Of a DNA stretch of 64,000 bases, positions 8,770-58,591 are shown piece after piece. The stretch's first letter is position 1, and each line of letters opens with the position of its first letter. The translations under genes were made by a program, and so were the position numbers. The stretch lies in contig CAWJYZ010000002.1 in the NCBI GenBank assembly GCA_963847225.1, positions 269,007 to 333,006 of the forward strand, written 5' to 3'. The stretch comes from an uncultured bacterium (lineage in GTDB: Bacteria; Chloroflexota; Dormibacteria; Aeolococcales; Aeolococcaceae). Under the pieces are notes generated by a model. The model searched no databases and had not been told where the DNA came from. It worked only from the letters and a program-made list of their open reading frames with translations.

Positions 8770-9668
8770 ACGCAGAGGGGGAGGGCGTCGAGACCTCGAC
8801 GCTCCGGGTCCCGGTACGCGGAGGCGAGCTCCTCGTGACCCGGTTCGGGTCAGGGGCCCGCACGGCAGTGGGAATTCACGGGATCACCGCAAACTCGATG
8901 TCCCTCCGCGCCGTGGCGCGGCAGCTGGGAGCGGAGTTCACCCTCATCGCACCCGACCTACGTGGTCGCTGCGGATCCGTCCAGCTGCCGGCACCCTTCG
9001 GCATGCGCTCCCATGCTGCCGACTGCGCGGCCGTCCTCCGCGCTCTCCAGATCGGCCCCGTCACGGTTCTCGGTGAGTCGATGGGCGCCTACGTGGGGGT
9101 CGTTCTCGCCGCCGAGCATCCCGAGCTCGTGCACCGCCTCGTGCTCGCCGACGGTGGGCTGCCGCTGCCCCTCCCCCCGAGCCTGACGTCCATCAGCGAT
9201 CCTGACCTGCTGACCGAGAGACTATTGGGCCCCGCGATCGCTCGGCTCAGGATGGTCTTTGCCTCACCGAGTGCGTACATGGACTTCTGGCGGCAGCACC
9301 CCGCCTTCGCGGAGGAGTGGAGCGCAGACATCGAAGCGTACTTCGCGTATGACCTCGAACCGTGCGAGGGTGGCTTCCGGAGCCGCGTCAACGAGGCGGC
9401 GGTGCGCGCTGACGGTGCTGAACACCTGACCGATCCGGAGCTGTTTCGCGACGCCTTGGGGAAGATCGCCTGCCCCATCATCCTCGTCAGGGCGCCCCGA
9501 AACCTCATGAACCAGCAACTTCCGCTCCTCAGCGAGGCCGTCGTGGACGAGTGGAGCGCGAAGCTCGGGAATCTCAGCGCAGAGATGGTCGACGACGTCA
9601 ACCACTACACGCTCATGATGGGGGCGCGTGGGGCGAGCGTCCTCGCCACTCGCGTGGCGGGGCGTTGA
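8766..9668 (+). CDS. Alpha/beta-fold hydrolase
   Basis: GESMGAYVG nucleophile elbow and an HGITANS oxyanion region. The ATGA overlap with the YciI stop suggests translational coupling. Confidence 0.75.
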   Translation: MNAEGEGVETSTLRVPVRGGELLVTRFGSGARTAVGIHGITANSMSLRAVARQLGAEFTLIAPDLRGRCGSVQLPAPFGMRSHAADCAAVLRALQIGPVTVLGESMGAYVGVVLAAEHPELVHRLVLADGGLPLPLPPSLTSISDPDLLTERLLGPAIARLRMVFASPSAYMDFWRQHPAFAEEWSADIEAYFAYDLEPCEGGFRSRVNEAAVRADGAEHLTDPELFRDALGKIACPIILVRAPRNLMNQQLPLLSEAVVDEWSAKLGNLSAEMVDDVNHYTLMMGARGASVLATRVAGR

Positions 9669-9709
9669 TCAGCACCCCTCCGGGGTTGCTGCGCCCGGCC
9701 TGAGGTGGG

Positions 9710-12700
9710 ATGGACGAGACGCCCGTCGCCAGGATGCTGCCGCCGGCTCGGCCGCCGGACTGGATGGCACGACCGGCACTCGCACGCCAGCTGGAAAGCG
9801 TTCTGGCACGGCGGCTCACCACCGTGGTCGCAGAGGCCGGCTACGGCAAGTCGACACTGGCAGCCTCCTGGTGGGAAACCGGACCTTGCGCCTGGTACAC
9901 AGCCGACAGCTCCGATCGGGACGTGGCCACCCTGGCCCTGCGACTCGGCGAGAGCCTGCGCCTGCGTGTCCCCGAGCTTCCCCCCGAGCTCACCCATCCG
10001 GCCGAGGGCTCGTCGGGCTATGCGGAGGAGCAGTCGGCGTACGCCGACGTGCTCGGCTCCCGCCTTGCCCAGGTGCTGCACGCGCACCTTGGCGTGGACC
10101 TTCTTCTCGTCATCGATGACGTGGACGAGCTGGGGATCGCGACCTCCGCGGCCCGGCTGGTCGAGGCGGTCTGCCGCCACGCACCAGCCCGGCTGCATCT
10201 GGTCCTGATCGGACGGCGCGGGCCGCCATTTCCCGTCGAGCGCCTTCGCGGTCAGGGGCAGCTCCTGGAGATCGGCGGCGACCGGCTGGCCTTCAGCGCC
10301 GAGGAGGTGGAGCAGCTGGTCGGATCACGCCTCAGATCCGCGGCTCCCGGCGTCGCCCGGAGCATCTTCGAGCTGGCGGGAGGATGGCCGGCGGCCGTGG
10401 TGCTGGCGCTGGAGGCGCTGCGCGGCTCTCCCGAGGAGAGGTGGCCGTCGGTGCTCGCGGCGACGGGGGGGCGCGGCGCCCCCCTTTTCACCTATCTCGC
10501 CGAGGAGGTCTTCGCACGCCAGCCACCCGAAGTTCGCCAGCTGGTCGCCACGGCAGCCCTCTTCGATCAGTTCACTCCCGACCTCTTCACGGCGCTGGGG
10601 GTCGCCGACTCCCGCGGCGTGCTGGACCGCCTGGCGCGGGCCAGCCTGTTCATCGAGGCCCGCCAGGACGGATCGCTGGCGCTCCGCCCCCTGATCCGCG
10701 ACTACGCACTCGAGCACCTGCCCGTCGCATCAGGGGCGGCCCAGCGGCTGCGCGTGCGCGGAGCCGCGTGGCTCGCTGCCAACCGGCACGTCGCGGCCGC
10801 GCTGCGCCTTCTCGTCGCCGCCGGCGAGACCACACGCCTGGCGGAGATGATCGAGCGGGAGGGTCAGGGCTTGCTCGCCTCGGGGGAGGTCGGGGCTCTG
10901 ATGCAGGCCTGCCTCGCCCTTCCGGCCGGCGTCCGCACCGCGAGGGTGGACGCACTGGAGGGCGAGGCGCGGCAGATCCAGGGCGACTGGCCGGGTGCGC
11001 TCGCCTGCTTCGAGCGGGCCGCCACGGGGCTGCACCCATTGCCCGCTCACCTCGCCTGGCGCATCGGCCTCATTCACTACCTTCGCGGCCCTCTCGAGCA
11101 GGCGCTCCAGACCTTCCGGGAGGGGCTCGAAGACGCGACCGCGGATCCGGTGGAGATGTCCCTTCTCTCGGCGTGGACCGCCGCCACCCACTGGGGGCGC
11201 GGTGAGGTGGAGGAGTGTCGCCGCCTAGCCCGCCGCGCCCTCAGCCTGGCCACCACCCACGCCGACGCCCGGGCCCTCGCGGCCGCTCACACGGTCATGG
11301 CGATGCTGGCTGCTCTGGACGGTGACCGTCGCGGGAACGATGCCCATTACCTGCTCGCTCTGCGGGCCGCCGAGGAGGCCGGGGACGTCTTGCAGACGGT
11401 GCGCATCCGCACCAACCGAGGCTCGCACTTCATGGAGGAGGGGTCGTACAACGAGGCGCTCCAGGAGCTCGACGTGGCCATCCGTCTCGCCGAGACGACG
11501 TCCTTCGCCAGCTTCCTGGCGCTCAGCCTGTGCAACCGCGGAGAGACCAAGCTCCGCATGGGCAGCTTGGATGAGGCACTGAGCGACCTGGAATCGTCGC
11601 GCGACCGATTCCAGCAGATCGAGGCCGACATGATCGCCTACCCCCTGGCCCTGATCGGCGAGGTGTACAAGGAGCGCGGCAACCTGGCCCAGGCCCGCGC
11701 CGCCTACGAGGAGGCGGTCGCGGTCGCCGAGCGCTCCGGTGACCAGCAAGGTCTGGTGCCGGCGCTGGCCGGCCTCGCCACGGTGCTGGCGCGGCCGGAG
11801 CCGGACCGGGCCAGCGAGATGGCTCATCGCGCCGTGGCTATGGGCACGGGCATGGGCTATGTGGCGGCCCTGATCGCCGCCGGGTGGGTGGCAGCGGTCA
11901 CCGGAGACCGGGAGGAGGCACAGAGACGGGCCGCGGAGGCCACCGCCGTCGCCCGGGCGCGGCGCGATCGCGCCGGCCTCGCCGAGGCCCTGGCCCTGGA
12001 CGCGCTGACGGCGACGGAGCCACCCCGGCAGGCGGGGAAGCTGCGTGAGGCCTTGGCCATCTATCAGGAGACCGGCAACCAGCTCGGGGTAGCGAAGATG
12101 CAGCTGGTCTTGGCGCTCCTCGAGGGAGGGCCCGGCTCGGCAGCACGGCGTCTCGATGCCGAGCGCCGGCTGGATGATCTCGGAGAGCACGGCCACCGCG
12201 GCGGAGCTCCGGCCGGCGTCCTGGCGATGCTGGGAGGGCCGTCCACCAACGCGGTGCAGGTGAAGTCTCTGGGAGGCTTCGCTGTCCTCCGCGGGGGGGC
12301 GCAGGTGAAGCTCTCAGAGTGGCAGTCGAGACGCGCCCGCGAACTGCTCAAGCTGCTGATCGCACGGCGCGGACGTCCGGTCTCGCGTGGCTACCTGATG
12401 GAGACCCTGTGGCCTGACGAGGATGCCGACAAGGTGGGCAACCGTCTATCGGTGGCGCTCAGCACCGTGCGCAGCATCCTCGACCCGGAGCGGCGATCCG
12501 CGGTGGATCTCATGGTGGCCGACAGGGATTGGGTGGCCATCAACCTGGAGGCGGTCGACATCGACCTCGAGCGCTTCCACAGCTCCGCCGCCGCCGGCCT
12601 GCAGCAGTGGCGCGGCCCCAACGCCAACGACGCCGCGCCCCACCTGGAGGCCGCCGCCGCGACGTATTCAGGCGACTTCCTGGAGGAGAACCCCTACGAC

Positions 12701-13015
12701 GAATGGGCCGTCCCCGCACGCGAGGAGGCACGAGCTGCCTACGTCGCAGTCACCGGTGCTCTGGCCGAGCAGGCCGCCCGGCGTCATGACGTCGACGCGG
12801 CGGTGCGCTACCTGCTGCGCATCCTGGAGCTGGACCGTTACGACGAATCCGCCAACCTTCGCTTGGTGGCCACGCTTTCAAGCGCGGGCCGGCATGGCGA
12901 AGCGCATCGCCACTACCTCGCCTATCGCCGTGCCATGGATGAGCTGGGCGTGGAACCCTCCCCCTTCCCCGCGCCGACCGAGCGGCCCGCCGCCGGGGCG
13001 CCCGGGCAAGTCTGA
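9710..13015 (+). CDS. Large multidomain regulator: N-terminal STAND/AAA ATPase (P-loop AEAGYGKST), TPR region, C-terminal SARP module (OmpR-type winged helix plus BTAD)
   Basis: 1101 aa. The Walker A box is near residue 45. Long helical TPR-like repeats follow. The C-terminus carries LGGFAVLRGGAQVKL..RRARELLKLLIARRGRPVSRGYLMETLWPD (winged helix), then BTAD (YLLRILELDRYDESANLRLVATL...AHRHYLAYRR). Confidence 0.8.
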   Translation: MDETPVARMLPPARPPDWMARPALARQLESVLARRLTTVVAEAGYGKSTLAASWWETGPCAWYTADSSDRDVATLALRLGESLRLRVPELPPELTHPAEGSSGYAEEQSAYADVLGSRLAQVLHAHLGVDLLLVIDDVDELGIATSAARLVEAVCRHAPARLHLVLIGRRGPPFPVERLRGQGQLLEIGGDRLAFSAEEVEQLVGSRLRSAAPGVARSIFELAGGWPAAVVLALEALRGSPEERWPSVLAATGGRGAPLFTYLAEEVFARQPPEVRQLVATAALFDQFTPDLFTALGVADSRGVLDRLARASLFIEARQDGSLALRPLIRDYALEHLPVASGAAQRLRVRGAAWLAANRHVAAALRLLVAAGETTRLAEMIEREGQGLLASGEVGALMQACLALPAGVRTARVDALEGEARQIQGDWPGALACFERAATGLHPLPAHLAWRIGLIHYLRGPLEQALQTFREGLEDATADPVEMSLLSAWTAATHWGRGEVEECRRLARRALSLATTHADARALAAAHTVMAMLAALDGDRRGNDAHYLLALRAAEEAGDVLQTVRIRTNRGSHFMEEGSYNEALQELDVAIRLAETTSFASFLALSLCNRGETKLRMGSLDEALSDLESSRDRFQQIEADMIAYPLALIGEVYKERGNLAQARAAYEEAVAVAERSGDQQGLVPALAGLATVLARPEPDRASEMAHRAVAMGTGMGYVAALIAAGWVAAVTGDREEAQRRAAEATAVARARRDRAGLAEALALDALTATEPPRQAGKLREALAIYQETGNQLGVAKMQLVLALLEGGPGSAARRLDAERRLDDLGEHGHRGGAPAGVLAMLGGPSTNAVQVKSLGGFAVLRGGAQVKLSEWQSRRARELLKLLIARRGRPVSRGYLMETLWPDEDADKVGNRLSVALSTVRSILDPERRSAVDLMVADRDWVAINLEAVDIDLERFHSSAAAGLQQWRGPNANDAAPHLEAAAATYSGDFLEENPYDEWAVPAREEARAAYVAVTGALAEQAARRHDVDAAVRYLLRILELDRYDESANLRLVATLSSAGRHGEAHRHYLAYRRAMDELGVEPSPFPAPTERPAAGAPGQV

Positions 13016-13144
13016 GCGGCTGAGCGCGAGCACGACCGGAGAGCAGTCCGCTTCGAGCCGAGCGGGCTGGGATCGCTCCGAGGTGCGGCCGCCCTTAAGC
13101 GGACTTTAAGACAGCCCCAATCCCCCCTTCTAGGCTCGCGGCCC

Positions 13145-13351
13145 ATGGAAACGTTCATGGTCCGTGTCTGGCGACCCGTTGTCGAGGAGCGCTCCGAGGG
13201 GGTTCGGGGGCATGCGGTCCATCTCGGATCCGGACGGCAGATCACGTTTTCCGAGCCGCGCAGCCTGATTCGCTTTCTAGCCGAGGCCGGCGGTGCCGCT
13301 CATGCCGCGGCGCCGGATCCGGGCTCTCTGCCCACCACCCATGAGGAGTAA
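13145..13351 (+). CDS. Hypothetical small protein (68 aa)
   Basis: ORF only. It sits immediately downstream of the SARP-type regulator. Confidence 0.25.
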   Translation: METFMVRVWRPVVEERSEGVRGHAVHLGSGRQITFSEPRSLIRFLAEAGGAAHAAAPDPGSLPTTHEE

Positions 13352-13357
13352 CCAACC

Positions 13358-13837
13358 ATGAGAGCAGGCATATTTCTTCCACTGCTGGCCAGCCTCGCGG
13401 CCGGGTCGTTGGCGGTGGCCTGTGGGTCGTCGAGCATGGCCCTGACGCCGCCCCCGACCTCGGCTCAAAACACCGCCGCCACCCCGCCCCCGGCCACCTC
13501 GGCGCCGGCCGCGGCCACCTCCCTGGCGCCGGCCGGCGTCGACCTCTCGGGAAGCTGGTCCGGCCAGTACAGCGGCACTCCCTACTCCGGCACCTTTACC
13601 CTGACCTGGACGCAGACGGGCTCGTCCCTGAGCGGTGACATCAAGGTCTCAGATCCCGCCGCGAAAGATTACCAAATCACCGGGACGGTCACGGGCAGCT
13701 CCATCCAATTCGGCGCCGTCGGAGCGGTCAGCTACACGGGCACGGTCTCGGGTAGCTCGATGTCGGGTTCCTGGTCGATCCCGAATCCCAATGGCGGCAG
13801 CCTCGGCGGCGGCAGCTGGAGCGCCAGCAAGCAGTGA
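13358..13837 (+). CDS. Putative secreted lipoprotein, Gly/Ser/Thr-rich
   Basis: Signal peptide ending in the lipobox-like LAVAC|GSS. The mature part is a low-complexity S/G/T-rich beta-type sequence. Confidence 0.5.
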   Translation: MRAGIFLPLLASLAAGSLAVACGSSSMALTPPPTSAQNTAATPPPATSAPAAATSLAPAGVDLSGSWSGQYSGTPYSGTFTLTWTQTGSSLSGDIKVSDPAAKDYQITGTVTGSSIQFGAVGAVSYTGTVSGSSMSGSWSIPNPNGGSLGGGSWSASKQ

Positions 13838-13863
13838 CGGCAGCAGCGATGTGGAGGAAATCA

Positions 13864-14403
13864 ATGCGTAATTCGCTCACGAACCCGAGCTTCATGAACA
13901 ACCCACCGGTCAAGCTCAACGTCAACGCCAGGATCCTCGGCCTGGTCATCGCCATCCTGGCCGGCATCGGGCTGCTCCTGTCACTCTTCGCTGGCGGACT
14001 CTTGTCGATCATCAGTTTCGTCGGAGGCTTTGCTCCCATCTGGTTCCTCGGCGTCCTCGTTGCCATCGTCGCCGAGGCGGTGGCCGCCGTCGGCGGATTT
14101 CAGATGTACCGCCTCAACCCGGGGGGCAAGAGTTTGGTCATCAGCGGTCTCGCCCTTGGATTCGCCGGAGCCGTGCTGTCGCTCGTCGGCGAGATCATGG
14201 CCTACTCCGGTCTGCTCGGCTACGGCGCCAGCGGGGCGATCGTCGGCCTGGTCTTCGACGTGATCGTCTACGGGATCATCTACTACCTGGTGGTGATCAG
14301 CAGGTTTCCCAACCAGCCTCCTCTGGTCTCGACCGCGATGATGGGGCCACCTCCCTTCGGGCCCCCGCCGTCCTACGGCCCTCCCCCACCTCCAACGGCC
14401 TGA
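13864..14403 (+). CDS. Integral membrane protein with a Pro-rich C-terminal tail
   Basis: ATG at 13864 lies after a GGAGGA. It has four predicted transmembrane helices and the tail PPFGPPPSYGPPPPP. Confidence 0.5.
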   Translation: MRNSLTNPSFMNNPPVKLNVNARILGLVIAILAGIGLLLSLFAGGLLSIISFVGGFAPIWFLGVLVAIVAEAVAAVGGFQMYRLNPGGKSLVISGLALGFAGAVLSLVGEIMAYSGLLGYGASGAIVGLVFDVIVYGIIYYLVVISRFPNQPPLVSTAMMGPPPFGPPPSYGPPPPPTA

Positions 14404-14552
14404 CCACCCCAATCCGGGGCCACGGCTCGCTGCCGCGGGCCGCGGCCCCACCCGGCGTCAGTCGCAGGAGCGCGCCTCAGGCAAGCCCGCACCGGCCGGG
14501 CCACGCTGGCGACGCAGCCAGCCGCGACAGTCACCGGCGCCCGCCCGAGCGG

Positions 14553-15380
14553 TCACTGGACGTCGCGGCGGCGCAGCAGCAGCGCTCCGGCGGCCGCGAA
14601 GAGGACGAAGTACAGCGCCACCACCAGCAGCGCCTGGCCACCCGAGACCACGGCGGCGACACCGTCGGCGGTCGTTCCCGCGGGGGACGCCCCCAAGGCG
14701 GCCACCAGCGATCCGGCGTTGACACCGGGCAGGGCCTTTTCGATCGAGGCCATCACCGAGAGCAGGGGGGCGGTGGCCCGAATCAGGTTCTCCACCGCGA
14801 GCACCCAGACCAGCCCCAGACCGACGGAGAGCGCCGTGCCGCGGATGAGCGCCGCGAGGGTCACCCCGAAGAGACACCACATGGCGAGGATGAGCCAGCC
14901 GGCGACGACCGACCGGGCCAGGGCACCAGCCGATGGACCGGCGAGGCTCGCATGGGCTGACACGGCGATGAGCACGCTGGCCAGCCCGGAGCAGGCGAAG
15001 GCCACCAGCACGAGGCCGGCCAGAGCGGTGAACAGCGCCGCCACCTGGCCGAAGAAGACGGTGAGCCGGCCCGGCCCGTTGCTCAGCATGGTCTTCACCG
15101 TCCCCCAGCCGTACTCCGAGCCGAGGCTGAGAGCCCCGAGCACCACGATCAGCGAGCCACCCCACACCGCGTAGCCGATGAGGCCCTGGCCGGGCAGGTG
15201 GGAGGGAAGCAGGGCGACGAGCAGGCGCTGCGCCTCGACCGCGCTCTTGGCGGAGCGATAACCGAGGTAGGGGAAGAGATAGGTGAAGAGGAGCATGAGG
15301 AGCAGCCAGACGCCGAACACCACCCAGACGGCGGGCCGCTTGCGGAGCTTGAAAAGCTCAGCGCGGTAGCTATGCAGCAT
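14553..15380 (-). CDS. ABC-2 family transporter permease
   Basis: ATG at 15380 (MLHSYRAELFKLRKRPAVWVVFGVWLL). It has six hydrophobic segments. It overlaps the ATPase stop (ATGCTGCATAG). Confidence 0.75.
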   Translation of the reverse strand: MLHSYRAELFKLRKRPAVWVVFGVWLLLMLLFTYLFPYLGYRSAKSAVEAQRLLVALLPSHLPGQGLIGYAVWGGSLIVVLGALSLGSEYGWGTVKTMLSNGPGRLTVFFGQVAALFTALAGLVLVAFACSGLASVLIAVSAHASLAGPSAGALARSVVAGWLILAMWCLFGVTLAALIRGTALSVGLGLVWVLAVENLIRATAPLLSVMASIEKALPGVNAGSLVAALGASPAGTTADGVAAVVSGGQALLVVALYFVLFAAAGALLLRRRDVQ

Positions 15381-45996: not shown

Positions 45997-46280
45997 CCTA
46001 CACTCCTCATCCCACCAACTTTGGAGACGGTGCCGACCTCGCGCCGCAGTCGAGCAGAGCCGCCTCAGCCTAGCCGATCATAGTCGCGGGGACCCGGCGA
46101 GTGCGACTGCAATCAGGACCATTGTCTCAGGATGGAGACTGCCGCCCAGCCACACCCCGAGCTCGTGTCTGAGCGGTTGCACTCTTTTCGGCAGCCACAG
46201 TGGAGGGTCCTCGCCTCAGCCCAAGACGCGGAACAGCTTCGCCGAGGCCTCCCGGTGGCCTGGTAGCATGGGCTTCCCCA

Positions 46281-46353
<73 letters not shown>

Positions 46354-46891
46354 CTTCGCTGGTGTTGCTGGGATTTCCCGTGGCACGGTTCGTGCCGGAT
46401 CGCCTCTTACCGGGCCTGGCCGGCGTCAGTTAAGCGCTCTCTTGCAGAGCCCCTCCGGAAGCAAGCTCGGAGGATCTTCGGTGGCCCTGGTGCGATTTGG
46501 CCCGTCTCTTCGCCGCCTGCTGGAGGTCATCGCGCCAAACCCCCCAACGCACGCCGTCGCGTGGCCGGCGGCCGCCGGCCTCCAGCGGAACCTCGAATAC
46601 CATTGATATCACTGCGCATTCGGGATTCCCGATCCTTCGCTCCGACGGTCGGCTCCCCGACGGCTTCCCAGCTCCCGCCCAAGGGGCTCCTGATCGCAGC
46701 AGTCAAGCGCGCTTGAAGGGACGCCCCAAGAGGACGACGAGATCAAGCCAGCTCACACGCTGCCCAGGATCCTTCTCAGGCAACGGTGATCCGAGCGATG
46801 AGCGAGCGCACCGGCCACGTATACAGGTACAGGCGAGTCTGCATAGTTGCACGAAACCGTCGCGATACGGCGCGTGGTCAAAGAGCGAACC

Positions 46892-47140
46892 TCAGCCACG
46901 AGACGGGCAGTCACTGACATGTCTGACCCGGAGGTCGCGAGCCTTCCCACCACGGGAGATGCGGAGAATCAGCTCGTCCCCGATCTCATGCTGGCGAATC
47001 GCCTTCTGGACGTCCGGGAAGTCTGTAATGGGCTTACCGTCCACCTCGATGAGGCGGTCCCCGCCGAGAACACCGCCCTCAGCAAGCTGACTGCCGCGCC
47101 GGGGAAGCGAGATCGCCAATCCAAGCTCGCCGTCTGCCGC
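46892..47140 (-). pseudogene. C-terminal PDZ-domain remnant of an HtrA/DegP-like protease
   Basis: PDZ-like sequence GGVLGGDRLIEVDGKPITDFPDVQKAIRQHEIGDELILRISRGGKARDLRV. No protease domain lies upstream. A second copy is at 52668-52930. Confidence 0.4.
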
Positions 47141-47144
47141 AGGT

Positions 47145-47762
47145 TCAGCTTCGAGCCAGGAACTCGTTAATCCAACTGCGCCCGGCGGCAGTGCACCCGC
47201 AAATCCCGATGCTGCACATGGGGCAGATACAGCGGCAGTCCTGGCCCTGACGGTGCAGCTCGCCCACGACAACGCTTGGACACAGGCACGTTAATAGGCG
47301 AAGCGCCTTCGTATAAGTGCTGAGGTGCCGCGGTGCGATCTCCCGTAGGTTGGGCTCGTACAGCCGAAGGGCCAGCTCGATCAATGCGGAGTACTCGGTG
47401 ACTGCGAAGCTGCACGCTGCGCAAAAAGTCGACACAACACGAACCGGCTCTCTGGGTGGGTCAGCGAGCAGACGTGTGATCGGCAGTCTCAAATCAGCGG
47501 CCGGCTCCACGCCTTGTCCACGGAGATGGTCCTCGAGCGTTCGTCGCTGGTCTCTGGAGTCCGCTTCGATCGCACGCAGCGATGCGTGAAGAAGAGGATG
47601 CGACAGCATCACGTCCGCCTGGCGGTCAATGGCCTCTTCGATTGCTCTCTCGGTGGCCACCAACGCGCTTACCTGGTCGAAGATAAGGGACGGTAACTCA
47701 TTGATGGAGTTCATAGACGCCGATCTCCTCCCGCCGGTCGTATTCATTCTGAAGGCCTCCAC
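47145..47762 (-). CDS. Hypothetical helical (ferritin/DUF892-like?) protein with a Cys-rich C-terminus (CRCICPMCSIGICGC)
   Basis: Intact 205 aa ORF in copy 1. Its last 9 codons cross the X/Y junction. Confidence 0.45.
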   Translation of the reverse strand: MEAFRMNTTGGRRSASMNSINELPSLIFDQVSALVATERAIEEAIDRQADVMLSHPLLHASLRAIEADSRDQRRTLEDHLRGQGVEPAADLRLPITRLLADPPREPVRVVSTFCAACSFAVTEYSALIELALRLYEPNLREIAPRHLSTYTKALRLLTCLCPSVVVGELHRQGQDCRCICPMCSIGICGCTAAGRSWINEFLARS

Positions 47763-48121
47763 TCTCGTTGAGAGTCCCGGCGGGTGCTTGGTCCGGCTCC
47801 ATAGTCAGGGGCCGAGTGGCTCTGGTTGGTAGCCGCGACCTGGGGCAGCAGCCAGGTGCTGCGGGTCATGCCGACGTAGTCTGGGCCTCTGAGGCTCACC
47901 CCGCTCCTCGACGGCTACCGCGGCTACCTCGCGTCCATACGGGAGGTTCTCATGGGCGGGTGGTCCGACCGTCTCCAGTCGCGGAGCGGCCCTCGAGCGG
48001 CTCTCGGCCACGCGCTTGCCTTCTCCACCTGGCGGTCACTGGTTTGCGAGCAGGATCTTGACGATGAGGCGTCTGTCGAGCTCATGGTTGCCGTGATTCA
48101 GCTTGCTGCTCACGGTAGCTG

Positions 48122-48589
48122 CTACGTAGTGCCCTGTGGGGCTGACGGCGGCGACAAGCCTGCGAAGGGGTCGCGAGCCTCGATGCCCGAGAAGCGGCGG
48201 AAGCCTCGATCACGCGTATAGATCGCAGCCACGCCCTGCTGGCGCATCAGGGTGGCAATGTGCGCGTCAGGGATGTCGTTGCCCCGCGGATGGTCGCCCG
48301 CAGTGCTCCGAAAGAGATCCCAGAAGCCATCATCCTCGCCTGGGGAACGCACGTGAGGCCGGCTCAGAAGCTGGGTCAAGTTGGCGATCGCCTCGGAGGG
48401 GCTGAGAGGGTGGGGCAGGATGCCCGGGTGGGTGACGATGCGCAGATAGCCGAGCGCCACTGGCCAGAAGAGATAGACGAGCTCCGGCCCGGTAGCGATC
48501 TCCTCAAGAAGACTGCGCGCCCGCCGGTGTAGTGGATCCGCCTCGTTGCTCGCGTAGACCAGGATGTTCGCGTCGAGAGTGACGCTCAT
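48122..48589 (-). CDS. vapC: PIN-domain toxin VapC
   Basis: N-terminal LDANILVYA motif with the conserved Asp. ATGA overlap with the upstream antitoxin. Confidence 0.8.
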   Translation of the reverse strand: MSVTLDANILVYASNEADPLHRRARSLLEEIATGPELVYLFWPVALGYLRIVTHPGILPHPLSPSEAIANLTQLLSRPHVRSPGEDDGFWDLFRSTAGDHPRGNDIPDAHIATLMRQQGVAAIYTRDRGFRRFSGIEARDPFAGLSPPSAPQGTT

Positions 48590-48825
48590 CCTGGCTCGTC
48601 GAGGATGGCTCGCACTGCCTCACGGTCCTCCAGGTCGACCCGCGGGCGACCGAGGTTCCGGCTGATCCACCCGAACGGCGGCGCGCCGGCGGCGGCTCCG
48701 CCCCCCGCCAGCGATCGGGCGAGCAGCTCGGACGCCACCTGCCCCATGCTCTTTCCTTCCTCGCGTCCGCGTCGCCGCAGGGCGCGCAGCACGGTGGGAT
48801 CGACGTCCAGGGTCGTCCGGGTCAT
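48586..48825 (-). CDS. vapB: VapB-type antitoxin
   Basis: ATG at 48825 (MTRTTLDVDPTVLRALRRRGREEGKSMGQVASELL). TTATCA TTATCA TCATCA direct repeats at 48837-48854, just upstream, are a candidate operator. Confidence 0.7.
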   Translation of the reverse strand: MTRTTLDVDPTVLRALRRRGREEGKSMGQVASELLARSLAGGGAAAGAPPFGWISRNLGRPRVDLEDREAVRAILDEPG

Positions 48826-49030
48826 GATGCCTGATGTTATCATTATCATCATCAGATGCGCGGCGTGCCTCTACTCAAGGGAGGGAAAGACCGTCCGCAT
48901 CACACTGCAAACGCCCTCGTCCCATTTACTTCCCAGCGGCGAAGTCAAGCTCGGACTTGGACCACTTCCCAGGAAGCAAGTGCCATGTTCCGACGTGGAC
49001 CAGCCTATGCCGGCGACGAAAAACGAGAGC

Positions 49031-49160
49031 GTTTCAATGGCATCAAGAGGTCGGGGGTTCGAGCCCCCCCGTCTCCACTTCGTTGGTATTGCTGGGGTTT
49101 CCCGCGGCATGGTCCGTGCCGAATCGCCTCTCACCGGGCCTCTCTCGCGTCAGTTAAGCG
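49031..49160 (+). repeat. tRNA-Ala 3'-fragment repeat (anticodon arm to 3' end) plus about 85 nt flank; att-like
   Basis: CGTTTCAATGGCATCAAGAGGTCGGGGGTTCGAGCCCCCCCGTCTCCA, then a conserved hairpin-containing flank. The 5' half of the tRNA is absent. Confidence 0.8.
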
Positions 49161-49229
49161 CCTGATCAGCTCAGCCAATCGATCATCAGCGCATTTCAGA
49201 ACGGAGGTGAGGGCTTCCTCGAGGGGACC

Positions 49230-49805
49230 ATGGCAGCGGCGCTTCCGCTCCTCTGGCTCCTTGCGCTGGCACTGCATCTCGCGCGCCCATACATGTTGCG
49301 CACTACTCAGAAGTTCTCACTGCGTTTGGGGGCCGACATTTGGTGGGTGCTATACATTGGGCTCCGAGACATCGTCATGGTCCTCGTGGCCGTCCTGAGC
49401 TTCATGTATCTGTACCCGGACGTGGTCGTCAACGATGCGCTACCGATCAGCGGCTCGCTCGCCACAGTTGCCATCTTTGCCGCCCTCCTAGTGAAGCTGG
49501 TGGCAGACACCGACGACGATCCCCGCGCATTCAAACTCCTGTCCACACTTCTGGGTGCCGGCAGCGCGCTCTACATCGTTCCCACGGTGGTAGGAGTGCA
49601 ACTGGCAGCGGTGGGTACGGGTCCAGTGTGGACGAACCTCGCGAAGGCGCTGGTCACTCACACTGACCAGGGGGTGGCGGTGGCGCTTTGCTGGATCTCG
49701 GTAGCCGCGATCGCCGTCATGGGCTTGGTCGCACTGACCTATGACTTCCGAACGCCAGCTCATAAGAGAGGCAGCCGCGCGCACCGGGGCGTGGCCGGAG
49801 CCTGA
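49230..49805 (+). CDS. Hypothetical integral membrane protein (paralog A)
   Basis: It contains HLARPYMLRTTQKFSLRLGADIWWVLYIGLRD. A second copy starts at 63555 with a 25-aa N-terminal extension. Confidence 0.5.
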   Translation: MAAALPLLWLLALALHLARPYMLRTTQKFSLRLGADIWWVLYIGLRDIVMVLVAVLSFMYLYPDVVVNDALPISGSLATVAIFAALLVKLVADTDDDPRAFKLLSTLLGAGSALYIVPTVVGVQLAAVGTGPVWTNLAKALVTHTDQGVAVALCWISVAAIAVMGLVALTYDFRTPAHKRGSRAHRGVAGA

Positions 49806-49823
49806 TGCGAGAAGGAGCATGAG

Positions 49824-50474
49824 ATGAGCTCAGAAGACATCACCAAGGCCATAACTCACGCGATCACGGCCGGCGGGATGCAGTGGACCGTCGCAACCAT
49901 CGCAGCGTTTATGCCCACCCTGTGGGTGATCACGGTCATCCTTCATCTAGCACGGCCTGTGGTGTTGCGCACCGTTAGGAAGCTGTCCCTGCGCTTTGGC
50001 GCGGACGTGTGGTGGCTCGGGTACGTTCTCGTGCGCGACGCCGTCATGCTGATCACCTTCGCGCTAAGCACGATCTTCTTGTTCCCGACCCTGATGCTCA
50101 CGATTCCGCTTCCGCTCACCGCTCCGCTGGCAGGCCTCGTGCTGTTTGCAAGCCTTTACGTGAAGCTGCTCTACGACGCTGACGACAGTTTCCAGGCATA
50201 CCGCGTGGCAACACTGCTGATGGCGGCCGGAGCCGCGCTCTACCTGATCCCACAGATCATCGGCATCGAATCGACCTCGCAGGGAGCGCTCTCCGGTGTC
50301 GCGTCGTTCCTGACTTCGACGAGCAATACCGGCTGGGCGGGCCCGCTCATGGTTGCCGCCCTGCTTGGGTATATGGGGGTGGCCAGCCTGATCTTCTACC
50401 AGGTAGTCTTCGGCGGCGTGCGTCGTTTAAGGAAGCGGGAGCAGCTTGGCAGAACGACGGGCGTGGCAGCTTAG
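49824..50474 (+). CDS. Hypothetical integral membrane protein (paralog B of 49230-49805)
   Basis: It shares HLARPVVLRTVRKLSLRFGADVWWLGYVLVRD with paralog A. Confidence 0.5.
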   Translation: MSSEDITKAITHAITAGGMQWTVATIAAFMPTLWVITVILHLARPVVLRTVRKLSLRFGADVWWLGYVLVRDAVMLITFALSTIFLFPTLMLTIPLPLTAPLAGLVLFASLYVKLLYDADDSFQAYRVATLLMAAGAALYLIPQIIGIESTSQGALSGVASFLTSTSNTGWAGPLMVAALLGYMGVASLIFYQVVFGGVRRLRKREQLGRTTGVAA

Positions 50475-50780
50475 AGAGGACTTCCGCTCACATCGACGCC
50501 TGAAGGCTAGGGGTACCCGTCATGTCTGCCAGCATGGCTGCGGCGCGCGAAGCTATGGGCATGAGTTGCGCCTGCCTCCGCTGACGAGCCCTACCGTGAA
50601 GCCCTGTGATGCCTGAGCCTGCCGCATCAGCGAACTCGCGGCCCTCAGCTTCGTCTGAGCGTAATCCAGAGATCAGGCTTGATCATTCCCGCCACGAACT
50701 GTGGTGGGAACCGGGGTCCGTGACACCGATAGCTCACCACCTCGTCGTCGGCCACATCGAAGGAACGCTGGGGGGCTGAC

Positions 50781-51155
50781 GTGGCGTCCGTCACCAAATC
50801 GCAGTGTGTGACGACCAGGCGCCAGCGATACCTCGCCGCGGCCTGGGTCTCGAGCGGATACTTCATGGCGGGATCGGTGCTGTCGGGTCTCGGTTTCGGC
50901 ATGGCCTTTCTCGGCGGGCTCCGAGGACTGGTGGTCGTCATACCGGCTGAGCACCGCGGGGCGGTGATGGCCGCCTTCTATATCACCGCCTATGCCTCCC
51001 TGTCGGTGCCCGCGGTCCTTGCTGGGCTCCTTGTGCCGCACTTGGACTTGGCGTCGACCTTCGAGATCTTCGGGAGCGTCGTGGCGGGCATCGCCCTGCT
51101 TGTTACTGCGCAGTCATGGAGAACTCGCCCGCGCTCCTTGGTGCCGCAGCCCTGA
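50781..51155 (+). pseudogene. C-terminal remnant (last about 100 aa, two transmembrane helices) of an MFS transporter
   Basis: Hydrophobic MFS-type tail with no N-terminal 10 helices upstream. Confidence 0.35.
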
Positions 51156-51233
51156 TCAACCGTCGACGCCCCACGGTCCCGCCACGAAGTCGCTCGAAGA
51201 TCCTGATTTGGAGCTCGCCCATTCTGGGGGTGA

Positions 51234-51599
51234 TCAGCGGATCTGCCGCACCCGCCCAGCGCGCCCCCATGCTCGGTCGGCGGTCCAGACCTCCGCGTCG
51301 TGCCGCTCGCCCAGGGCGAGGCAGAGTCGGTCGGCGAGCGAGAACCCCTCTCCTTTCAGCCATCGGCGAGCTGCCCACTCGGCGTCCTCCTCGGTGACCG
51401 GTTCGACGGTGAGCCCATAACTCTGGAGGAGCGCTCGCGCCAGCCCCCAGCTCCTTCCATGCGCCCGCACCTTCTGCGCCACCTCCGACCAATTGGCTGC
51501 CCCACAGACGCCGCCTGCGGCAAGCGCACCTTCGACGACGTCGTGACCGCGTTCGCCCGCCAGGTAGGCGAGGAGAGCCGACGCGTCGAAGACGTTCAG
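51234..51599 (-). CDS. VapC-like PIN-domain toxin with a non-canonical CTG start inside a CTGA stop/start overlap
   Basis: LNVFDASALLAYLAGE... then the PIN C-terminal motif FSLADRLCLALGERHDAEVWTADRAW. There is no in-frame ATG/GTG/TTG upstream of the conserved Asp. Confidence 0.45.
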   Translation of the reverse strand: MNVFDASALLAYLAGERGHDVVEGALAAGGVCGAANWSEVAQKVRAHGRSWGLARALLQSYGLTVEPVTEEDAEWAARRWLKGEGFSLADRLCLALGERHDAEVWTADRAWGRAGRVRQIR

Positions 51600-51841
51600 A
51601 GGGAGTCCTCGGCAGCAGCCTCCTGGCGGCGCTCGGCCAGCAGCTCCCTCACCAGATCCAAACCGGAGAGCTCCGTCCGCACGCGCTCACGAAGCTGTTC
51701 CTGGGTGAGAAGAACGAGGCCGCTCGCCGTCTCGACGAGCGTGAGCGGCGTCCCTTCAGCAAGCCCGGCACGCTCTCGAAGCTCGGCCGGGACGACGATC
51801 CGGCCGCGTTCTCCCATTCTGACTCGATATGTCCCACTCAT
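51596..51841 (-). CDS. AbrB/MazE/SpoVT-family antitoxin
   Basis: ATG at 51841 (MSGTYRVRMGERGRIVVPAELRERAGLAEGTPLTLVE). Confidence 0.6.
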   Translation of the reverse strand: MSGTYRVRMGERGRIVVPAELRERAGLAEGTPLTLVETASGLVLLTQEQLRERVRTELSGLDLVRELLAERRQEAAAEDSL

Positions 51842-52080
51842 ATGACCATCGTACCACAAGCTATATTCGCATGGGCAAGCGGACTTCACCACCGGGCGTG
51901 GGCGGACCGCGGCAGGTGGATGGCGGCGGCGCCGGCGTTATCGCCTCCCGGCACCGAGCAAGCGCCCTCCTCCCATTTACTTCCCAACAGCGGCGGCAAG
52001 CTCTGGCTTGGAGCGCCGCGATGGAAGCAAGCGCTGAACTCGAACTCCACTCAGCCTATGCGCCCGCCAAAGAAGGAGAG

Positions 52081-52220
52081 CGTTCAATGGCATGCAAGAG
52101 GTCGGGGGTTCGAGCCCCCCCGTCTCCACTTCGCTGGTGTTGCTGGGATTTCCCGTGGCACGGTTCGTGCCGGATCGCCTCTTACCGGGCCTGGCCGGCG
52201 TCAGTTAAGCGCTCTCTTGC
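52081..52220 (+). repeat. tRNA-Ala 3'-fragment repeat plus flank; this copy matches the flank of the intact tRNA
   Basis: GAGAGCGTTCAATGGCATGCAAGAGGTCGGGGGTTCGAGCCCCCCCGTCTCCA, followed by 92 nt identical to 46354-46445. Confidence 0.8.
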
Positions 52221-53044
52221 AGAGCCCCTCCGGAAGCAAGCTCGGAGGATCTTCGGTGGCCCTGGTGCGATTTGGCCCGTCTCTTCGCCGCCTGCTGGAG
52301 GTCATCGCGCCAAACCCCCCAACGCACGCCGTCGCGTGGCCGGCGGCCGCCGGCCTCCAGCGGAACCTCGAATACCATTGATATCACTGCGCATTCGGGA
52401 TTCCCGATCCTTCGCTCCGACGGTCGGCTCCCCGACGGCTTCCCGAGCTCCCGCCCGAGGGGCTCCTGATCGCAGCAGTCAAGCGCGCTTGAAGGGACGC
52501 CCCAAGAGGACGACGAGATCAAGCCAGCTCACACGCTGCCCAGGATCCTTCTCAGGCAACGGTGATCCGAGCGATGAGCGAGCGCACCGGCCACGTATAC
52601 AGGTACAGGCGAGTCTGCATAGTTGCACGAAACCGTCGCGATACGGCGCGTGGTCAAAGAGCGAACCTCAGCCACGAGACGGGCAGTCACTGACATGTCT
52701 GACCCGGAGGTCGCGAGCCTTCCCACCACGGGAGATGCGGAGAATCAGCTCGTCCCCGATCTCATGCTGGCGAATCGCCTTCTGGACGTCCAGGAAGTCT
52801 GTAATGGGCTTACCGTCCACCTCGATGAGGCGGTCCCCGCCGAGAACACCGCCCTCAGCAAGCTGACTGCCGCGCCGGGGAAGCGAGATCGCCAATCCAA
52901 GCTCGCCGTCTGCCGCAGGTTCAGCTTCGAGCCAGGACTGGTTAACCCCGATCATTCACGCCGACAGGTGATCGGAGAGGAGCCCCGGCGCGAAAGCGCC
53001 CTCCGGTAAGGGAAACTGGCGTGGACCAAAACTCCAGCAACCCA

Positions 53045-54940
53045 ACCAGGAGGGGTAGAGTAGGCGACTGGTTCAGCGTAGGCCTCCCCAGCCGCCCCTC
53101 ATCGAACCGTGCATGAGGTTCTCCCTCACACGGCTCTCCGACGGTGTTCACGTGACCCCTATCGCAGGCGCGCCATACCGGATCGTCCCAGTGAGGCAGT
53201 ACACACCGAGGCGCTGATACCAGTCATGGGTGTGCGCGGTGCCCCAGCGCCGTCCAGACTTCTGATGCTTCTTGCTGTCGAAAAGCGCCAGTCGCTCATG
53301 AACGTAGCAGTCGATCTGGTCGAACTTCTGCGTCGAGTTGCCCCAGCGGAAGAAGTTGCTCCAGCCTCGGAGGACCGGGTTGAGCTCAGCGACCAACGCA
53401 CCGATCGGCCACTTCAGACGGGATCGCGGAGCCGTGATCGCCTTGACCTTGGCCCTGATCGACGCCATCGCACGTCGCGACGGCCAGCGGTGCAAGTACC
53501 GCCGCCCATACCGGAAGGACCTGACCATGCGCAGATGGAACCCCAGAAAGTCGATGCCATCGGCCCCGTCACCCATGCTCACAATCCGGGTCTTGTCCGG
53601 GTGGAGCTGAAGGTCGAGGGCTTGGGCCCGATTCTGGAGCCAGCGAAGGGCATTGCGCGCGTCGGTTTCGCTCCGACACAGAATCACGCCATCATCGGCG
53701 AAGCGCAGCCACGTACCGAGAGGCTTCGCCTCCTTCTCAAAGAGGGCGTCGAGGGCATGGCCGTAGATGTTGCTGAGCAAGGGGCTGACCGTCCCGCCTT
53801 GCGGAACGCCCGTGCTGGAGACGACGATGCCGTGCTCCATCACACCCGCTCGCAGCCACATCCGAATGAGCCGCAGCACCCGGCGATCGCTCACTCGCCT
53901 CGCCACCAACCTGAGCAACAGATCGGGGTCAAGGCTGCCGAAGAAGTCCTTGAAGTCCAACTCGACGATCCACCACGCCCCACGGTTCACCTCCGAGCGG
54001 ATGCGTTCCAGCGCTTGGTGTGCACTCCGCCTCGGCCGAAACCCGTATGAGCAGGGGAGAAAGCCGGCCTCAAACAACGGCTCCAACACCAGCTTGGCCG
54101 CGGTCTGGAGCACCCGATCACGGACCCGGGGGATTCCGAGCCCGCGCCGCTCCTGCGGCCGCCCTGGCTTGGGGATGTAGACCCTGCGCACTGCCTGTGG
54201 ACGGTACCGCCCGCTCAGCAGTAGCCCGCGCAACTCCACCAGCATCCGCTCCACCCCGTAGGCTTCGATCGCCTCGATGGTCTCGCCGTCGATGCCGGCA
54301 GCGCCCCGATTGCGTCGGACCTGTTCCCAGGCTCGCCGCAACACATCTGGCCGAGCTATCCGGTCGTAGAGAGCATGAAACCTCCTCTGACGGTTCTGCT
54401 TTGCGGCCACGTAAAGCGTGCGCTGAAGTGCGCGGACTTTGTCGTCGGGGTGGTTGGCTCTCGCCATGCCCTCATCCGCCCCTTGCTGCGCACACGCCAC
54501 CGAAGTGCGGGTCCTTCCCTACGCCGAGTTCTGTTGTCTCGGCGATCATTGGTACAGATATGACCCGCTCCAACTCCCTCCGCACCGCCCCGGACTTCGG
54601 TGTGGCCTTATACCGGGACAAGCTTCCGCGGCGATCGACACGCCGTCGGGTGCGGGAGGGCCTCCCCAGTTGACCGATCGGCCTTCCCTGCATGCCGTCG
54701 CCTCTACGCCGGAGCGATTCCGGGATGCTCCAGAACCCAAGTCCCGGACTGCAGCCTTCGCCCACAAGTGCCAGGCTCGGCTCGCTCAATCCCTCACGGG
54801 TCACTTTCACGACGCGGCAGCGTTCACGTAATGTTGCGGCCTGCAGGTTCGCTTCTTCTCGCTTCGACGCCCACCTCTCGATGAACGTCGGAGATTGACT
54901 ACCCGGCTCCTCTGGCGGCTTGCCGGGACGGGACTCGCAC
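53045..54940 (-). mobile_element. Bacterial group II intron (about 1.9 kb), minus strand
   Basis: The 5' end GTGCGAG is at 54940 (minus strand). Domain V GAGCCGTGTGAGGGAGAACCTCATGCACGGTTC occupies 53137-53105. An RT/maturase ORF lies in domain IV. The 3' end is approximate. Confidence 0.7.
53148..54467 (-). CDS. Group II intron reverse transcriptase/maturase (no obvious HNH endonuclease domain)
   Basis: RT blocks RVYIPKPGRPQERRGLGIP, VELDFKDFFGSLD, GVPQGGTVSPLLSNIY and LRFADDGVIL, plus the maturase X domain. Confidence 0.85.
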   Translation of the reverse strand: MARANHPDDKVRALQRTLYVAAKQNRQRRFHALYDRIARPDVLRRAWEQVRRNRGAAGIDGETIEAIEAYGVERMLVELRGLLLSGRYRPQAVRRVYIPKPGRPQERRGLGIPRVRDRVLQTAAKLVLEPLFEAGFLPCSYGFRPRRSAHQALERIRSEVNRGAWWIVELDFKDFFGSLDPDLLLRLVARRVSDRRVLRLIRMWLRAGVMEHGIVVSSTGVPQGGTVSPLLSNIYGHALDALFEKEAKPLGTWLRFADDGVILCRSETDARNALRWLQNRAQALDLQLHPDKTRIVSMGDGADGIDFLGFHLRMVRSFRYGRRYLHRWPSRRAMASIRAKVKAITAPRSRLKWPIGALVAELNPVLRGWSNFFRWGNSTQKFDQIDCYVHERLALFDSKKHQKSGRRWGTAHTHDWYQRLGVYCLTGTIRYGAPAIGVT

Positions 54941-58428: not shown

Positions 58429-58572
58429 GTTTCAATGGCATCAAGAGGTCGGGGGTTCGAGCCCCCCCGTCTCCACTTCGTTGGTATTGCGGGGGTTTCC
58501 CGCGGCATGGTCCGTGCCGAATCGCCTCTCACCGGGCCTCTCTCGCGTCAGTTAAGCGCTCTCTTGCAGAGC
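58429..58572 (+). repeat. tRNA-Ala 3'-fragment repeat plus flank (variant matching 49031-49160)
   Basis: Same variant bases as the 49031 copy (GGCATGGTCCGTGCC hairpin, CTCACCGGGCCTCTCTCGCG). Confidence 0.8.
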
Positions 58573-58591
58573 CCTTAGCGCCCCCTTAGCG

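Follow-up and report, generated by a model that had tools for sequence, protein, structure and literature searches.

The window, a stretch of 64,000 nucleotides (64 kb) from an uncultured bacterium of the Dormibacteria (contig CAWJYZ010000002.1, positions 269,007 to 333,006 of the forward strand), encodes a 1101-residue regulator in which a MalT-type STAND ATPase and a TPR array precede a C-terminal winged-helix and BTAD module of the SARP type. Directly behind the gene lies a box of 11-bp-spaced direct repeats, followed by a small conserved gene. The protein probably transduces a signal as a STAND transcription factor with the layout of MalT and the LAL regulators, and acts through this adjacent predicted box; the probability of this reading is roughly 0.65. 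SARPs have been treated as actinobacterial regulators of antibiotic clusters, with the SARP module always at the N-terminus (PMC10972967). The family described here, referred to as MalT-SARP, departs from that view. The SARP module is the C-terminal output of a MalT-type sensor ATPase in hundreds of species of at least three phyla, and in the window it has no link to a biosynthetic cluster.

The codon-position GC contents of the regulator open reading frame (ORF; Table 1) were 0.78/0.52/0.86, as in the real genes of the window (about 70% GC). The start codon was backed by 26 relatives (45-77% identity), which were collinear with the regulator from residue 1 to the BTAD domain. An earlier note on this DNA had suggested an N-terminal P-loop STAND ATPase resembling MalT, and this was confirmed. 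The NCBIfam model MalT (NF003420) matched residues 8-405 with E 1.2e-45 over profile positions 6-401, and the PDB MalT fragment 8bob was aligned to residues 9-405 with E 5e-21. The model score, 155.9 bits, was far under the equivalog cut-off of 537 bits; the regulator is therefore a MalT relative and no MalT orthologue. In the Pfam scan of the regulator, a weak match to AAA_22 was obtained at residues 34-170 and none to NB-ARC. The ATPase motifs are intact, and G44, G46 and K47 of Walker A as well as D136 and D137 of Walker B were invariant among the 26 relatives. Several Pfam TPR families were matched between residues 420 and 760, TPR_12 with E 6e-14. By analogy with MalT and AfsR, the TPR array is the presumed sensor domain.

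At the C-terminus, Pfam Trans_reg_C was detected at residues 873-927 (E 5.7e-7, 30.0 bits, cut-off 26.2) and BTAD at residues 951-1085 (E 3.8e-13, 50.5 bits, cut-off 22.1), with no GerE/LuxR domain in the same scan. The final 261 residues covered the whole winged-helix and BTAD module of EmbR (2fez, E 5e-4) and AfsR (8hvr, E 1e-3). The stretch N911-R921 of the third helix of the winged helix, presumably the recognition helix, was almost invariant among the 26 relatives. The order MalT-like ATPase, TPR, winged helix, BTAD is exactly the one that had been proposed from the sequence. The AlphaFold2 (AF2) model, for which the input alignment contained the 26 relatives, had a mean predicted local distance difference test score (pLDDT) of 86. 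The model consisted of an alpha/beta ATPase, helix pairs at residues 411-823, a winged helix at residues 849-944 with beta strands, three helices and a beta hairpin, and a helical C-terminal domain. The top PDB matches of the model in Foldseek were the STAND-TPR protein 6mfv and MalT 8bob.

Avs3 (8dgc) was also among the structural matches, and STAND-TPR architectures are common in defence systems, which could make the protein an anti-phage nucleoside triphosphatase of the STAND/Avs type. This is extremely improbable. PADLOC gave a match to a generic TPR model only, and neither a known defence model nor a toxic effector domain was found: the position of the effector is occupied by a DNA-binding activator module with no nuclease, protease or other toxic domain. 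In addition, MalT was the best match of the nucleotide-binding oligomerisation module (NOD), and the neighbours are ordinary metabolic genes.

The protein-collection search with the regulator resulted in 473 matches at E < 1e-10, and the domain content was taken from the best 120. Nearly all of these 120 relatives were about 1100 residues long with the same Pfam set, the BTAD entry missing in 7. In a scan with one genome per species, at least 566 genome stretches encoded full-length collinear relatives; the best 80 of these came from Dormibacterota, Actinomycetota, Gemmatimonadota, cultured Kribbella and one Streptomyces isolate. The closest relatives among the matches listed were those of Dormibacterota (60-65% identity). 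The many Actinomycetota metagenome-assembled genomes (MAGs) with relatives belonged to Gaiella, Solirubrobacterales, Acidimicrobiales and Nitriliruptoraceae, and the relatives in Kribbella species and the Streptomyces isolate had about 44% identity. The domain order, for which a search in other genomes had been suggested, is thus present in hundreds of them and was verified directly in Kribbella antibiotica and one Gemmatimonadota MAG. The relatives carry database labels such as 'BTAD domain-containing putative transcriptional regulator' and 'MalT / DNA-binding SARP family activator'. The MalT-SARP architecture is widespread, already auto-annotated and not a rarity. In the full-text search of open-access literature, papers describing a C-terminal SARP or BTAD architecture were not found, and an earlier mention, e.g. 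in STAND domain surveys, is possible. The newness lies in the absence of any description or characterisation in the literature found rather than in rarity.

Among the protein matches, P0061, P0062, P0063 and P0081 were 59-63% identical over the first 75-79% of the regulator, and the winged helix and BTAD were undetected in them. P0063, a regulator without the SARP module, and P0309, a separate 283-residue SARP-module protein, share one 169,842-nt contig; a naturally split gene, a frameshift or a mistake in the assembly could lie behind this arrangement. A search with the SARP module only gave mostly short proteins on short contigs, some of them labelled 'partial'.

The box was first seen by lining up the DNA between the regulator stop and the small ORF, and was then defined by an expectation-maximisation motif search. 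In the window it lies 76 nt past the regulator stop. The exact sequence TTAAG-N6-TTAAG occurs once in the window (13095-13110); with up to two mismatches, 10 matches were found versus 2.2 expected, a number that was reached in 0 of 100 shuffles. The matrix built from 38 loci with regulators less than 50% identical to that of the window (distant-loci matrix) ranked position 13091 first among about 128,000 positions on both strands of the 64 kb, with a score of 13.4 versus 4.3 for the runner-up. The runner-up site at 58548-58593 (minus strand) is a weak CTAAG-N6-CTAAG-N6-GCAAG with no ORF start directly behind it. Near 9600-9710, upstream of the regulator gene, no matrix match indicating an autoregulatory box was obtained. 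The consensus scan of 9400-14700 gave no -35/-10 pair of a sigma-70 promoter and no -35 consensus at the box promoter, and intrinsic terminators were not found in the same region. A structured RNA or attenuator in the intergenic region was considered and rejected, as the fold was no better than shuffled (z = +1.19) and no Rfam match was obtained. The earlier note had offered the three downstream ORFs as a possible regulon and had suggested looking for SARP repeats upstream of 13145 and 13358. For the promoter of 13145 the suggestion was supported, with SARP-like 11-bp repeats which lie 8-9 bp upstream of a -10-like hexamer and are conserved across phyla, whereas upstream of 13358 no separate repeats were present.

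The box was found at the 3' end of the regulator gene in 55 of 81 loci. Within these 55 sites, the first core, T-A-A-G, was conserved to 100/95/100/98% and the second core, A-A-G, located exactly 11 bp downstream, to 100/100/87%; box positions T17, A19, A29 and A30 were conserved to 100%. A third, weaker unit lies 11 bp upstream of the T-A-A-G core, and the spacers between the cores are variable. The repeat pentamers can be written as TTAAG/nGAAG. The -10-like hexamer, nAnnnT, lies 9 nt past the last pentamer and is TAGGCT in the Dormibacterota group and CAnnAT elsewhere, its second-position A and sixth-position T each being 80% conserved. When the last repeat is read as a heptamer (e.g. CTGAAGG), it ends 8 bp ahead of the hexamer. 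In 51 of the 55 sites an ATG/GTG start follows 6-8 nt past the hexamer. As this spacing leaves no space for a Shine-Dalgarno sequence, the mRNA of the gene behind the box should be leaderless.

The position of the box relative to the regulator gene was likewise conserved, its start being 30 nt or less from the regulator stop codon in 51 of 55 sites. In 25 of the 55 loci, the TAA stop of the regulator is the T-A-A of the best-conserved repeat (e.g. L015 9303-9360, L063 9159-9216), and in 5 more loci it coincides with the TAA of the upstream repeat, exactly one 11-bp register off. The last codons of these regulators are thus dual-coded with their own predicted binding site. In cross-validation, the close-group matrix placed its top match of the 15-kb locus at the regulator stop in 31 of 54 distant loci and on the opposite strand in 8 more. 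The reverse test gave the top match at the regulator stop in 15 of 26 loci, with 3 more on the opposite strand. The chance expectation in these tests is about 1%. As CTTAAG is a palindrome, the opposite-strand matches are to the same site.

In 37 loci the first gene behind the box encodes the small METF protein; in 11 Kribbella/Streptomyces loci it encodes an M23 peptidase, and in 6 loci an unrelated 73-residue protein. Past the first gene, clustering of the downstream ORFs gave lineage-specific sets only and no conserved cargo. Since the box stays with the regulator when the downstream gene changes, it appears to be part of a regulator-operator pair rather than a feature of a single gene; the comparison points to regulator and box as the constant pair and to exchangeable cargo. 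The near-invariant helix N911-R921 is in step with the near-invariant DNA cores of the box.

These observations bear on the alternative that the box is a promoter element belonging to some other factor (e.g. an alternative sigma factor or another winged-helix regulator) and that the STAND-SARP protein acts elsewhere in the genome. The absence of the box from 18 of 81 loci is in line with this possibility, as is the presence of just one strong site in the 64-kb window. It is nevertheless unlikely, because the box is tied to the stop codon of the regulator across phyla and across differing downstream genes, and the third helix of the winged helix, presumably the one that reads the DNA, is as conserved as the box. 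Moreover, tandem OmpR/SARP winged helices have 11-bp tandem repeats with 8 bp to the -10 element as their signature (PMC11301090, PMC10972967).

Several points weigh against the regulator acting through the box. The Trans_reg_C score of the regulator barely exceeds its cut-off, and the third repeat in the window, CCAAT, departs from the nGAAG consensus. The palindromic CTTAAG leaves the strand and orientation of binding unfixed by sequence alone. Because the 55 sites are linked by phylogeny, the conservation counts exaggerate how many independent observations there are. In the 18 loci mentioned above, neither the box nor the small gene was found within 6 kb, and the pairing of regulator and box is therefore not universal.

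Regulation through the adjacent box is proposed because the box has the geometry of published SARP operators and its promoter has no -35 consensus. The TPR array would sense a ligand or a protein. ATP binding at the intact P-loop would then open the regulator and permit multimerisation; ATP-driven opening and multimerisation are established for MalT. Two or three C-terminal SARP modules would be set side by side on the 11-bp-spaced TTAAG/nGAAG repeats (13094-13122), which would take the -35 position of a promoter lacking its own -35 element. From there, the BTAD and the winged helix would recruit RNA polymerase to the TAGGCT -10 hexamer. The leaderless transcript would begin at or beside ATG 13145 of the 68-residue protein gene and may also cover the lipoprotein and membrane-protein genes in the window (gaps of 6 nt and -4 nt). 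The published counterparts are close in geometry. SARP operators are composed of heptameric direct repeats in 11-bp units which overlap the -35 region (PMC10972967). In the case of AfsR at the afsS promoter, two DNA-binding domains are placed side by side, the promoter-proximal site being 8 bp upstream from the -10 element; the SARP module makes contact with sigma region 4, the beta flap and the C-terminal domain of the alpha subunit (PMC11301090). MalT has been named as a model for STAND regulators in the same work (PMC11301090).

Activation would be the expected outcome of such binding. The regulator could instead bind the box and act negatively or autoregulate, blocking read-through as a roadblock or occluding the downstream promoter as a repressor. 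The presence of the regulator's TAA stop within the most conserved repeat in 25 of 55 loci would fit this, as would the extent of the site over the -35 to -10 region, the usual repressor position (PMC11301090). Such a role is quite improbable, however, as the BTAD-containing SARPs characterised so far are activators working from exactly that position (PMC10972967, PMC11301090). The promoter itself also lacks a -35 element, as activator-dependent promoters typically do. In addition, with no Shine-Dalgarno sequence and the -10 hexamer only 6-8 nt ahead of the ATG, a dedicated leaderless transcript seems to be needed for expression of the gene.

In comparison with known systems, the regulator, which is probably an activator at the adjacent box, is an uncharacterised variant of two well-known regulator families: a MalT/LAL protein with a SARP output, or a permuted AfsR with a MalT-type NOD. 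It has the winged helix of SARPs and the BTAD directly after it. In contrast, all SARP classes (small, medium and large) have been defined with the module at the N-terminus (PMC10972967; preprint 10.64898/2026.09.02.748808), whereas here it occupies residues 849-1085 of 1101; the term inverted, used for this architecture in the earlier note, is fair, since the published classifications contain N-terminal modules only. The actinobacterial host and biosynthetic cluster associated with SARPs were not found either: the closest relatives among the matches listed were from Dormibacterota MAGs, and Gemmatimonadota also have members of the family. With AfsR and other large SARPs (order SARP, NB-ARC, TPR), the regulator shares the kinds of modules, i.e. 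winged helix with BTAD, STAND ATPase and TPR array. The afsS gene adjoins afsR, and here, too, a small protein gene is placed directly downstream of the regulator gene. As in the predicted box, the direct repeats of the afsR-afsS system overlap the -35 position and the proximal repeat is 8 bp from the -10 element (PMC11301090). Compared with AfsR, the modules come in the opposite order (SARP module C-terminal), the ATPase is of the MalT type instead of NB-ARC, the repeat sequence is TTAAG/nGAAG, Dormibacterota and Gemmatimonadota are among the hosts of the family, and the surroundings contain no biosynthetic gene cluster.

Three features of the MalT clade of STAND proteins were present: intact Walker A and B motifs, MalT homology over about 400 residues across the nucleotide-binding domain, helical domain, winged-helix domain and arm, and a helical-repeat sensor C-terminal to them. 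The layout with a DNA-binding domain at the C-terminus is also shared with MalT and LALs. By this analogy, the mechanism of the regulator would be ligand- and ATP-driven multimerisation which delivers several DNA-binding domains to repeated sites. In contrast to MalT and LALs, the output is an OmpR-type winged helix with BTAD and not a LuxR-type (GerE) helix-turn-helix, the sensor consists of canonical TPRs, and the geometry of the predicted operator is SARP-like, with no set of MalT boxes. The SARP-LALs PimR, SanG and FilR also unite a SARP module and a LAL-like ATPase half within a single polypeptide, and the sites they bind are made of three heptameric direct repeats (PMC10972967). Their SARP module is N-terminal with the LAL-like half after it, so the regulator has the permuted order, and their genes are located in Streptomyces antibiotic gene clusters. 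EmbR of Mycobacterium tuberculosis (2fez), the best solved-structure match of the C-terminal 261 residues, differs in having a C-terminal FHA domain and Ser/Thr kinase control, and has neither an ATPase nor TPRs.

The regulator, operator and target form a triplet predicted by comparison, including in cultured Kribbella, which could give experimental access to the logic by which STAND transcription factors signal and to the role of a small-protein family. If the operator prediction is true, the AfsR-afsS design, in which a large STAND-SARP regulator drives an adjacent small gene, extends beyond Streptomyces. A broader proposal is speculative and rather doubtful: MalT-SARPs may be an unrecognised, phylum-spanning class hard-wired to the promoter directly behind their own gene by way of an operator which, in many of them, includes the stop codon of the regulator, with the leaderless protein of about 65 residues (three beta strands, one helix) as the usual output and a new, AfsS-like small effector, a master switch downstream of a STAND sensor in soil bacteria which do not produce antibiotics.

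Table 1. Positions of the regulator, its domains and motifs, the predicted operator and the downstream genes in the window.
Feature	Position	Strand	Remarks
Regulator gene	9710..13015	+	uninterrupted ORF, ATG start, 1101 aa; MalT-type NOD, TPR, winged helix, BTAD
MalT-type STAND nucleotide-binding oligomerisation module	9731..10924	+	aa 8-405; NCBIfam MalT, PDB 8bob, Foldseek
Walker A P-loop AEAGYGKST	9830..9856	+	aa 41-49, from translation
Walker B LLLVIDD	10100..10120	+	aa 131-137, from translation
TPR/helical-repeat array	10940..12178	+	aa 411-823; Pfam TPR_12, TPR_1, TPR_2, TPR_16 and AF2 helix pairs
OmpR-type winged-helix DNA-binding domain	12254..12541	+	aa 849-944; Pfam Trans_reg_C and AF2 secondary structure
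BTAD domain	12560..12964	+	aa 951-1085; Pfam BTAD, alignment with EmbR and AfsR BTAD
Predicted operator, three direct repeats, 11-bp period	13094..13122	+	cTTAAG 13094-13099, tTTAAG 13105-13110, degenerate cCCAAT 13116-13121
-10-like hexamer TAGGCT	13131..13136	+	9 nt past last pentamer, 8 nt ahead of ATG 13145
Conserved 68-aa protein gene (METFMVRVW...)	13145..13351	+	predicted leaderless first target
Lipoprotein-like gene	13358..13837	+	159 aa; signal peptide, lipobox-like LAVAC
Membrane protein gene, Pro-rich C-terminus	13834..14403	+	189 aa; 4-nt overlap with preceding stop

The three ORFs reported downstream of the regulator are all present (Table 1). By profile search, 45 of 81 loci, spanning phyla, had a homologue of the 68-residue protein immediately after the regulator. 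At 50% identity the family comprised 216 representatives, almost all of which were stand-alone proteins 57-100 residues long, with the signature M-E/Q-T-F-x-V-R-V-W ... L-R-G-x-V-x-H ... S/T-G ... F ... L-x-x-F-L. The AF2 model consisted of three beta strands and one helix as well as a disordered tail; its pLDDT was 74 overall, above 87 in most of the fold and 65 in the 11-20 loop. In this predicted folded unit of strands and helix the protein differs from AfsS, and we know of no similarity between the two. Neither Pfam nor PADLOC models matched the 68-residue protein, and the comparison of its fold with the PDB gave no match (best E 0.4). Because other genes replace it in some lineages, the protein is read as the regulator's usual target and not its obligate partner; a role in feedback is conceivable.

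The start of the lipoprotein-like gene is 6 nt past the end of the 68-residue ORF and is preceded by its own GGAG; due to this gap and the GGAG, it is most likely co-transcribed with the small gene. The lipoprotein was conserved only in 13 Dormibacterota-like loci. For the 189-residue membrane protein, no Pfam match was obtained and no homologue was detected in the related loci. The upstream genes in the window encode a phosphotransferase, a DinB-like protein, a YCII protein and an alpha/beta hydrolase, and an ABC transporter is encoded further downstream. When synteny with the relatives was compared, the upstream alpha/beta hydrolase, YCII and DinB genes and the downstream ABC transporter were not conserved. 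No biosynthetic gene cluster was found among the neighbouring genes of the regulator in the window.

Other gene arrangements behind the regulator were observed in the related loci. In the 11 Kribbella/Streptomyces loci (e.g. L063 9211-10109, Kribbella antibiotica), the M23-peptidase-like gene is leaderless and encodes 116-137 residues, and it is followed by a GNAT acetyltransferase gene in 10 of them. A Dormibacterota subgroup of about 60% identity (L005, L006, L008, L009, L014, L018, L019) has neither the box nor the small gene, and its regulator gene is directly followed by a Shine-Dalgarno-led gene whose product starts with 'MG(L/T)AILLIG'. Sister loci have a similar-looking gene ('MGQAILLIGTRKG…') further along, past the small gene; homology was detected only for L014, L018 and L019.

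Two other features of the window are located away from the regulator. A tRNA-Ala(GGC) gene at 46281-46354 stands at the point where the GC content drops from about 0.73 to 0.63-0.65 for about 8 kb (46000-54000), a pattern typical of an island integrated beside a tRNA gene. The ORF at 94-1095 on the plus strand, a complete reading frame of 333 residues, encodes a HipA C-terminal kinase domain (E 3e-52).

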